Assembly (NCBI GenBank): GCA_009778715.1
Contig: WRFR01000002.1
Coordinates: forward strand, 45,598 to 109,597
Origin: Coriobacteriia bacterium
Lineage (GTDB): Bacteria > Actinomycetota > Coriobacteriia > WRKU01 > WQUG01
Length of the DNA: 64,000 bases
Direction: 5' to 3'
Both the position numbers and the translations under genes were made by a program. The first letter of the stretch is position 1, and each line of letters starts with the position of its first letter. The notes under the pieces are model-generated. The model was given only the letters and a program-made list of their open reading frames with translations. It searched no databases and was not told the DNA's origin. Shown here piece after piece: positions 557 to 1,575 of the stretch.

Positions 557-568
557 AAGGTCTGATTC

Positions 569-577
569 ATCATACCA
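569..577 (-). promoter_or_regulatory. Candidate extended -10 element (TGGTATGAT) driving the pyrR leader
   Basis: The reverse complement of 569-577 reads TGGTATGAT (TGnTATGAT). It lies about 15 nt upstream of the start of the PyrR binding loop. Confidence 0.4.
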
Positions 578-661
578 TAAGTTTTTGCGCTGATTGTGGT
601 AAAAATTTATGAAAAAAACGGAATAGCAAAATGGAAGTTTAAGCGAAATATACCCTTAGAA

Positions 662-1243
662 TTAGAGCCCGCTAATGCGTTTTTCCAGTTCCCACAAATG
701 ACAATCCTTAAACTTCTTTCCGCTGCCGCAAAAGCATGGGTCATTTCGTCCAAGATTACTTACGATGCTCTGGTCGTGCTGTTTAACGTAATCAATGGTT
801 TCAGTCGATGGTGTCCGGAATGAAAACCGTGAATGACCATCTTTATTAGTAAGCGCAAAATCACCTTGAGTTATGATGTCCATCCCAATGATCATATCGA
901 ACCCTTGGCGGTGTATATCCGCCTCCATGACTGGAACACCCGAGAAGCCAACATTATTGGGGAGCAAGATATTCACAATATAAGTATTGAGTAAACTTGA
1001 ACCTCCCGCATGCTGAACCTCAGCGGAACCACGCACAATAAGACCAAGATCGTTTGCGACTTCGTTAGACACACAAGATGATGTTGCTCCCGTATCCCAC
1101 AAGCCTTGTACCGTTTTCATTTTCGGTCTATTCTTTGGAGGATTATTAGGGTCGAATGCCTCTCCAACTGAAACATTCGTAATGAGCCGCTTGATCAGGT
1201 CGTCAGAGGCTATAGTAAACGGTCGATAAGTCGGAAGATACAT
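662..1243 (-). CDS. Retropepsin-like (clan AA) aspartic protease with a C-terminal SEC-C zinc-binding motif
   Basis: The 193-aa ORF has the catalytic WDTGATSS (D-T-G-A) motif and the second retropepsin motif FDMIIGMD. Its C-terminus GRNDPCFCGSGKKFKDCH is nearly identical to the SecA C-terminal zinc finger. Local composition is AT-rich. Confidence 0.8.
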   Translation of the reverse strand: MYLPTYRPFTIASDDLIKRLITNVSVGEAFDPNNPPKNRPKMKTVQGLWDTGATSSCVSNEVANDLGLIVRGSAEVQHAGGSSLLNTYIVNILLPNNVGFSGVPVMEADIHRQGFDMIIGMDIITQGDFALTNKDGHSRFSFRTPSTETIDYVKQHDQSIVSNLGRNDPCFCGSGKKFKDCHLWELEKRISGL

Positions 1244-1246
1244 AGC

Positions 1247-1486
1247 TTATACAAAAATTGGAAACGCCGAAGCGATACGCACAGGATAGGCATCAGTACG
1301 AGGGTCGCACATCTGGATCATCGCTTTGCCTGCTCCAAAACGATCATCGGCATATTTTACCGCCTCAAGTGCCGTGTCGAACACGCCCTCGATTGATTTA
1401 CCTTTGATTACCAGGAATTTATTCGGATACTTTTTAATCAACTCAGCCCGGTTTGCTTTGTAGTAGTCATACTCAACTTTGAACAT
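1247..1486 (-). CDS. Small 79-aa protein (DUF5678-like pattern), first gene of the protease cassette
   Basis: The ORF MFKVEYDYYKANRAELIKKYPNKFLVIKGKSIEGVFDTALEAVKYADDRFG.. has a GGAG SD upstream. Its stop is separated from the protease ATG by only 3 nt (TAA GCT ATG). The family assignment is from memory of the sequence pattern, not a search. Confidence 0.6.
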   Translation of the reverse strand: MFKVEYDYYKANRAELIKKYPNKFLVIKGKSIEGVFDTALEAVKYADDRFGAGKAMIQMCDPRTDAYPVRIASAFPIFV

Positions 1487-1544
1487 TTAAATCAACTCCA
1501 TGCCATTCGTGATCATTTGGCAAGCAAGCATATAGCTTATATCT

Positions 1545-1553
1545 ATTATAACA
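1545..1553 (-). promoter_or_regulatory. Extended -10 promoter element (TGTTATAAT) for the small-protein/protease cassette
   Basis: The reverse complement of 1545-1553 is TGTTATAAT, about 60 nt upstream of the 79-aa ORF start. A short inverted repeat ATATA-GCT-TATAT lies just downstream. Confidence 0.5.
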
Positions 1554-1575
1554 AGATTCTCAAACGCCTCACGCC

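Follow-up and report, generated by a model that had tools for sequence, protein, structure and literature searches.

A mobile gene pair that joins a DUF5678 protein to a retropepsin-like aspartic protease with a SEC-C tail

A stretch of 64,000 nucleotides from a Coriobacteriia bacterium (GenBank assembly GCA_009778715.1, contig WRFR01000002.1, positions 45,598 to 109,597 of the forward strand), here called the window, contains two adjacent small genes, the first for a 79-residue DUF5678-family protein and the second for a 193-residue retropepsin-like aspartic protease that ends in a SEC-C motif. Comparison across bacterial genomes and phages shows that these genes constitute an autonomous mobile two-gene unit in which the order is fixed and the DUF5678 partner is obligate. 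A first-pass annotation, made from the letters of the window, had put the pair forward as an undescribed system, and in keeping with this the literature search found nothing on a pairing of DUF5678 with a retropepsin. We propose that the unit is a self-contained, horizontally mobile module resembling a toxin-antitoxin (TA) system, in which the tail of the partner plugs a protease stationed at the ribosome or the membrane; this is put forward tentatively, as a reading that we hold at somewhat under an even chance. The principal features of the locus are as follows.

1247-1486, minus strand: open reading frame (ORF) of the partner, 79 amino acids, a divergent member of the DUF5678 family
662-1243, minus strand: ORF of the protease, 193 amino acids, a retropepsin-like aspartic protease with a SEC-C tail
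1553->1545, minus strand: extended -10 element TGTTATAAT, putative promoter of the pair, read from the sequence
1499->1496, minus strand: GGAG Shine-Dalgarno sequence, 9 nucleotides 5' of the partner ATG, read from the sequence

Conservation of the pair

Both ORFs lie exactly at the coordinates given by the first-pass annotation, as does the spacer of 3 nucleotides between them, which reads TAA-GCT-ATG from the partner into the protease and leaves both ORFs in the same frame. The window holds a single partner gene and a single protease gene, and the same intact pair is present on two independent assemblies.

Collections were scanned with an alignment of the protease core from which SEC-C was excluded, because a first contig scan had been swamped by the SEC-C motif (full-length relatives at 6 of 80 loci). 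At least 510 relatives came from the metagenome scan and 200 from the IMG/VR viral contigs. In the loci that were fetched, 207 of 214 protease ORFs are preceded directly, on the same strand, by a partner gene (149 of 164 in the first pass), with an intergenic gap that is mostly between -8 and +20 nucleotides, and four of the seven exceptions are situated at contig ends. The reverse test gives a similar picture: among 53 phage loci found through the partner, the protease follows downstream in 46, would fall off the contig in 2, and is missing in 5 where the partner stands alone, while three of three lookups that started from the partner on long contigs of cellular origin (loci L304-L309) found the protease downstream. 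The pair is distributed over at least nine phyla, and the LE1-like phages of Leptospira, at 28% identity, retain the arrangement. The earlier expectation that the two genes co-occur in a fixed order is therefore borne out in both directions and across many phyla.

The solo partners on phage contigs (L261:3968-4225, L281:3959-4225, L292:3983-4225, L300:3890-4219 and L270:1199-1540) are either followed by a gene on the opposite strand or extended at their own C-terminus, and may be orphans that act as antitoxin-like decoys. Solo partners thus exist while solo proteases are rare, which is the asymmetry expected of an antitoxin and its toxin. One IMG/VR contig, 3300024349_000313 (L230:4839-5285, L286:3067-3513), encodes a partner-less protease paralogue of 148 amino acids about 0.7 kb upstream of a complete pair.

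The protease

The protease belongs to the retropepsins by several lines of evidence. It matches the Pfam families Asp_protease_2 (PF13650; 35.1 bits against a cut-off of 24.3) and gag-asp_proteas (PF13975; 31.2 against 28.2), as well as SEC-C (PF02810; 39.6 against 20.4), and the motifs on which the first-pass annotation had relied, WDTGATSS (D50-T-G-A), IIGMD and GRNDPCFCGSGKKFKDCH, are all found in the 193-residue protein. The AlphaFold2 (AF2) monomer model has a predicted local distance difference test score (pLDDT) of 95 and adopts a single-lobe retropepsin fold. A Foldseek search with this model ranked APRc best (5c9f, E 4.5e-7, target-normalised TM score (TMt) 0.66), followed by the proteases of HTLV-1, HIV-1 and FIV and by Ddi1, with a probability of 1.00. 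With Pfam scores above cut-off, the motifs in place and a model of the expected fold, the assignment stands.

1085..1096, minus strand: catalytic motif D50-T51-G52-A53, invariant in 40 aligned homologues
1121..1243, minus strand: N-terminal extension of the protease, residues 1-41, a beta-hairpin with strands 7-13 and 21-28
698..751, minus strand: SEC-C metal-binding knuckle GRNDPCFCGSGKKFKDCH, residues 165-182, with ligands C170, C172, C181 and H182 (CxCx8CH)

A search of a protein collection returned 187 homologues of the protease. Among the 40 that were aligned, the residues W49, D50, T51, G52, A53, G120, M121, D122, G127, D128, C170, C172 and C181 are invariant, and the D[TS]GA motif is kept in all 122 of 122 non-redundant family members. 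Judged by these conserved residues, the protease is predicted to be catalytically intact. Single-lobe clan-AA enzymes must dimerise, and by analogy we infer that this protease is a homodimer.

The N-terminal hairpin is modelled at a pLDDT of 84-97 and keeps F9, T10 and an AFDP motif. The form of the window protease that is recorded at NCBI has 152 amino acids and begins at M42; since the hairpin is conserved in homologues, the start of the 193-residue form is right and the NCBI form is too short. Gene callers often mis-start or miss the protease, as in the window and at L304:6373-6786, L306:6369-6770 and L250:4001-4552. Outside the window, calls of 133-137 amino acids leave a gap of about 120 nucleotides behind the partner, and in records of Leptospira phages the protease gene has no annotation.

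The C-terminal tail of the protease is where the family varies. In the window it is a SEC-C knuckle that the first-pass annotation had called nearly identical to the zinc finger of Escherichia coli SecA, and indeed 15 of the 18 residues of GRNDPCFCGSGKKFKDCH are the same as in that finger (1sx0, 1tm6), which together with the PF02810 score bears out the assignment. Across 124 non-redundant proteases the tail is a SEC-C motif in 76, polybasic in 23 (about a fifth), of another kind in 17 and absent in 6; the remaining 2 have a truncated core. The polybasic tails are 16-39 residues long and rich in Lys and Arg, as in the example ending ...KRKKRPGKKRRPWS (loci include L004, L135, L172 and L250:4001-4552), and several of the 17 tails classed as other are basic or are decayed SEC-C motifs. 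This pattern suggests that SEC-C and polybasic tails are functionally equivalent and serve as an interchangeable basic appendage. Such a swap would point to a generic anionic target, either the rRNA of the ribosome or the membrane, rather than to SecB specifically. The SecA-like metal-binding domain is known to bind SecB, ribosomes and phospholipids and also occurs fused to methionine aminopeptidases (10.1101/613315). Among the NCBIfam models, the window protease matches PRK12318, a methionine aminopeptidase with SEC-C.

The DUF5678 partner

The first-pass annotation had assigned the small protein to DUF5678, and this holds only by way of its relatives. Alone, the 79-residue partner has no Pfam match at E<=1, DUF5678 (PF18929) included. 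On the other hand, four of six orthologues match PF18929 (best E 1.4e-8), the window partner scores 79.6 bits against an orthologue profile built without it, some family members are named DUF5678 by NCBI and JGI, and the partner model resembles DUF5678-annotated Pandoravirus proteins in BFVD (A0A2U7UD66, A0A2U7UG46 and S4VV29) with TM scores of 0.67-0.68. The 79-residue protein is thus a divergent DUF5678 member that is assigned through its family and not through its own Pfam score. The fold spans bacteria, phages and giant viruses of amoebae (Pandoraviruses).

A word-indexed homologue search with the window partner returned only itself, and the family was reached by synteny: in five phyla, the ORF just 5' of the protease can be aligned with the window partner. 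At 50% identity the family falls into about 2,650 clusters, 941 of them with E<=1e-10. In the partner model, which has an overall pLDDT of 85, two parts can be told apart.

1307..1486, minus strand: partner core, residues 1-60, a compact alpha-alpha-beta-beta-alpha-beta fold, pLDDT >93
1250..1306, minus strand: partner C-terminal tail, residues 61-79, predicted to be disordered, pLDDT 64 falling to 45

Although disordered in the model, the tail is conserved, with the family consensus C-x-P-G-x3-Y-T-Q-T-F-H-S-R-V-A-F. No PDB entry resembled the partner significantly in a fold search, and the top hit, TadA (E 0.3), was discarded as noise. Some partners occur as tandem proteins with two DUF5678-partner domains in one chain (P0245 and P0342), an arrangement that would fit a dimeric target and agrees with the partner itself working as a dimer against a protease dimer. 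Fusions that include the partner were considered as functional clues and set aside as uninformative, being either spurious N-terminal extensions of the ORF or tandem duplications.

Co-variation between the two proteins bears on the role of the tail. In an exploratory set of 155 non-redundant pairs, with an effective number of about 125, the partner tail is involved in half of the top 30 inter-protein couplings. The protease columns most strongly coupled to it are R19, A108, S55, M106, C57, L48, T87, V76, S59 and A79. By motif alignment, the counterparts of L48, S55 and C57 in HIV-1 protease are L23, D30 and V32, which line the substrate pockets, and by topology V76, A79 and T87 fall in the flap hairpin. 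After average product correction (APC), the mean coupling of tail by pocket is 0.015, as compared with -0.006±0.007 for an entropy-matched null (p=0.003), and it is also above that of shuffled pairings; for the partner core against the pocket columns no such coupling is seen. We therefore propose, from aligned sequences, that the partner tail is the segment that would bind the cleft of the protease. The suggestion that the small protein inhibits its neighbour or serves as its substrate gains indirect support from this co-variation and from the conserved disordered tail.

Foreign composition and expression signals

The cassette is horizontally acquired. In windows of 300 nucleotides, GC content is 0.39-0.47 over about 400-2000 and 0.55-0.62 in the flanks, so that the AT-richer stretch first noticed by eye is real, and GC content at third codon positions (GC3) is 0.43 in the protease and 0.48 in the partner as opposed to 0.67±0.05 in host ORFs (39 long ORFs). 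Both the GC dip and the low GC3 agree with the foreign origin that the first-pass annotation had supposed.

565..1900, strand not applicable: low-GC foreign island that contains the cassette and a methylase remnant; its left edge is the PyrR leader RNA of the host
442-564, minus strand: PyrR-binding leader RNA, Rfam RF00515, 43.1 bits, which is below the gathering score of 54, E 9e-4
1576-1722, minus strand: C-terminal remnant of an Eco57I-type restriction-modification (RM) methylase, 48 codons, with 45% identity to the methylase C-terminus, E 9e-4

The PyrR leader has its attenuator hairpin at 450-471, directly upstream of pyrR, and the pyr operon (pyrR, pyrB, pyrC, carAB, pyrK/D and pyrF; locus L241) belongs to the PyrR-attenuated type. 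In the methylase remnant the in-frame upstream sequence consists of stop codons only; the remnant lies within the same low-GC island as the two-gene module and outside the module itself.

With regard to expression, TGTTATAAT and the GGAG sequence are present where they had been placed, while a consensus promoter scan did not flag the extended -10 site at 1545-1553, because it has no -35 hexamer. As read from the sequence, TGTTATAAT is a plausible but unproven promoter of the pair. A terminator search 3' of the protease gene found none.

Between 1923 and 3846 of the window, a 123-residue protein with an RF-1 domain (an ArfB-like peptidyl-tRNA hydrolase, plus strand) is convergent with hipB-hipA (minus strand). 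The latter genes, hipA at 2321-3550 and hipB at 3547-3846, overlap by 4 nucleotides, and the GC content of the whole region is near the host value, unlike that of the protease island. A second low-GC stretch at 3800-6260 (GC 0.36-0.53) may be another acquired cassette; the calls for locus L241 give no Pfam match for the genes at 4016-6259 apart from the helix-turn-helix (HTH).

4016-5053: multi-pass membrane protein of 345 amino acids, in the second low-GC stretch
5062-5289: HTH_26 regulator of 75 amino acids, in the second low-GC stretch
5273-6259: putative lipoprotein of 328 amino acids, in the second low-GC stretch

Genomic surroundings

The pair has no constant companions. Over 123 non-redundant loci, 570 of 636 neighbouring ORFs are singletons, which rules out a third conserved gene, and the only recurrent cluster of neighbours (11 loci, about 390 amino acids) looks like an integrase by its size and position. 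On viral contigs the neighbours include integrases, endolysins or amidases, DNA methyltransferases, Ant anti-repressors and repressors. In one phage that was worked through, tail and lysis genes are followed by the pair and then by a fusion of a methyltransferase with a restriction endonuclease, at the end of the prophage. Temperate phages often carry the module as accessory cargo in the region between lysis genes and integrase, and the pair moves between that region and chromosomal sites that are unrelated to one another. DNA methyltransferases are the most recurrent neighbours outside the phage core (L245, L181 and L261). A role as a phage morphogenetic (prohead) protease was considered and ruled out, as the pair sits beside lysis, integrase and methyltransferase genes and not head genes, and also occurs alone in chromosomes. 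Among cultured phages the family is confined to the Leptospira LE1-like phages and one faecal contig, and it was not found among plasmids in PLSDB.

On cellular contigs, most of the genes beside the pair are unrelated housekeeping genes. Such surroundings are typical of small selfish modules and are no evidence for defence. The first-pass annotation had located the pair in a decayed defence islet, and in the window an RM remnant and hipBA do lie nearby; elsewhere, cellular copies are found mostly amid housekeeping genes. PADLOC models were matched by a few of 150 cellular neighbour ORFs (MADS, methyltransferase or PDC models) and, among 150 viral neighbours, by methyltransferases only, both counts being without a background rate. 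As for the pair itself, 9 of 20 proteases match PDC-M08B weakly (best E 9e-6), the matches of the protease to E2 and PDC-S12 cover the SEC-C motif alone, and the partners match no PADLOC model.

Proposed mechanism and alternatives

In the TA-like module that we propose, the cytoplasmic protease would act as a homodimer whose tail would station it on an anionic surface, most likely the ribosome, with the membrane or SecB as alternatives. The partner core would dock on the protease and place its disordered tail in the substrate cleft under the flaps, where the tail would serve as a pseudo-substrate or inhibitor and keep the enzyme silent. If the partner were lost, out-titrated or degraded, whether through loss of the element, phage infection or stress, the protease would be freed to cut some conserved protein of the host, probably a translation-associated one, and growth would stop. 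The outcome would be stabilisation of the element, exclusion of a superinfecting phage, or both. A more specific version, in which this is the first TA or abortive infection (Abi) module with an aspartic protease as its effector, that is, a retropepsin parked at the ribosome by its zinc knuckle or an equivalent polybasic tail and gated by the pseudo-substrate tail of a DUF5678 protein, spread by phages and countered by solo DUF5678 decoys, is a considerably bolder claim that we regard as rather doubtful, if still worth entertaining.

Several observations weigh against the TA-like module. The co-variation is exploratory: it draws on an effective number of about 125 sequences, shared phylogeny confounds it, and the pocket columns were partly picked post hoc. 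The coupled tail may just as well be a genuine substrate. The SEC-C region of the AF2 monomer is modelled at a pLDDT of 95-97, so it may be packed and not a free tether. No DNA-binding domain was found in the partner (no HTH, ribbon-helix-helix (RHH) or AbrB match in Pfam for 6 partners, and none significant in the PDB fold search), which makes autoregulation of the classic type II kind unlikely. No enrichment beside known defence genes, which the first-pass annotation would have predicted, is visible among the 150 cellular and 150 viral neighbours, for which there is no background rate, and the pair matches no known PADLOC system beyond the weak PDC-M08B hits.

In a first alternative, the two proteins would be an enzyme and its substrate: the partner tail would be cleaved so as to release a peptide or switch the core, for instance as a prophage signal in superinfection exclusion or lysogeny control. 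The tail-cleft coupling and the conserved disordered tail fit this equally well, translational coupling would supply enzyme and substrate in equimolar amounts, and phage-borne pairs are often near genes for repressors, anti-repressors and integrases. However, the pair also occurs in chromosomes with no phage genes nearby, as in the window, it would be unusual for a protease to be made along with a stoichiometric substrate of its own, the SEC-C or polybasic tether would be left unexplained, and solo partners exist where there is no protease to cut them. On balance we consider this account unlikely.

A second alternative concerns what the module was selected for. If it were a dedicated anti-phage abortive infection system, selected for exclusion and not for addiction, the partner would sense a phage protein and in response release or activate the protease. 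The lack of clear defence-gene enrichment around cellular copies (judged with no baseline statistic) and the failure of the partners to match PADLOC speak against this, even though pairs lie in the accessory region of prophages beside methyltransferases and the methyltransferase-endonuclease fusion, the window copy adjoins hipBA and the RM remnant, the PADLOC candidate PDC-M08 includes a retropepsin-like protein that is a distant relative, and the solo partners of phages could be counter-defence decoys. Dedicated defence is accordingly a minority view here, and an improbable one.

A benign role in proteostasis would make the protease a non-toxic accessory peptidase that processes nascent or secretory proteins at the ribosome or membrane, with the partner as an adaptor or assembly chaperone. 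There is precedent in the SEC-C motifs of methionine aminopeptidase, YecA and SecA, and in several genomes the neighbours are housekeeping genes, but the distribution is sporadic, the window copy is foreign in composition, the family is found on 200 IMG/VR contigs and no neighbourhood is conserved. Taken together, the sporadic distribution, foreign composition, carriage by phages and absence of a fixed neighbourhood fit selfish or conflict genes better than housekeeping genes, and a proteostatic function is in our estimation quite unlikely. Finally, it is very improbable that an old insertion has left the window with a decaying copy that no longer functions and is carried along as a passenger, for although the copy adjoins a methylase remnant and has no detected terminator 3' of the protease gene, both ORFs are full length with all invariant residues intact, a putative promoter and Shine-Dalgarno sequence are present, and the intact pair recurs on two independent assemblies.

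Comparison with known systems

The best structural match of the protease, APRc (RC1339) of Rickettsia conorii (PDB 5c9b, 5c9d and 5c9f), is likewise a single-lobe bacterial enzyme of clan AA, with an identity to the window protease of only 12-14%. APRc is embedded in the membrane and processes autotransporters. To our knowledge it lacks a DUF5678 partner, a tail of the SEC-C or polybasic type and a comparable N-terminal hairpin. We know of only a few bacterial retropepsin-like proteases with an established role (APRc, SpoIIGA and PerP), and the present family has now been found on hundreds of phage contigs, together with a concrete mechanism, a plug formed by the partner tail and a tether to ribosome or membrane, that can be put forward for it.

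The proteases of HIV-1, HTLV-1 and FIV and the RVP domain of Ddi1 have in common with the window protease the fold, the DTGA loop, the Gly-rich flap and the I-G-x-D helix motif. Unlike them, the enzyme of the present pair is bacterial or phage-borne and has a SecA-type zinc knuckle. In retroviral proteases the cleft is occupied by flanking transframe (p6*) peptides, which restrain the enzyme, and this restraint is proposed as the closest analogy to the inhibition that the partner tail would exert, with the difference that the regulator of the retroviral enzyme is a flanking propeptide while that of the window protease would be a separate protein encoded upstream. Should the pair prove to be a TA or exclusion system, it would offer a naturally occurring protein that inhibits a retropepsin, together with a new catalytic class among the effectors of bacterial conflict.

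The SEC-C motif with its CxCx8CH ligands is common to SecA, YecA, YchJ, some methionine aminopeptidases and the window protease; no description of SEC-C attached to an aspartic protease was found. In contrast to SecA, the motif can be swapped within this protease family for simple polybasic tails. This natural exchange is a clue to what SEC-C domains recognise, and even if the pair is not a conflict module it would still be a clean model for the targeting of an enzyme by a SEC-C domain.

Type II TA systems resemble the pair in having two small, co-oriented and coupled genes with the smaller one first, in being patchy, mobile and carried on prophages, and in that solo copies of the small gene are commoner than solo copies of the large one. 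They differ in that the partner of the window pair has no recognisable DNA-binding domain of the HTH, RHH or AbrB type. We know of no characterised TA toxin that is an aspartic protease. DUF5678 is a domain without a known function whose pairing with a retropepsin is now shown to be obligate and mobile, and it would acquire a first role if the reading as a gated toxin tethered to the ribosome is true.

Component B of the PADLOC candidate PDC-M08, a candidate defence component of about 127 amino acids, is also retropepsin-like. Identity with that system was ruled out, given the weak matches of the protease and the lack of any match for the partner, and PDC-M08B appears from its sequence to be a different, distantly related family. 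A last comparison can be made with Lit, a metalloprotease that cleaves EF-Tu and so excludes phage. Lit is of another catalytic class and has no homology to the window protease; it serves as a working analogy, that of a protease lying latent in the cytoplasm which, once triggered, shuts translation down.

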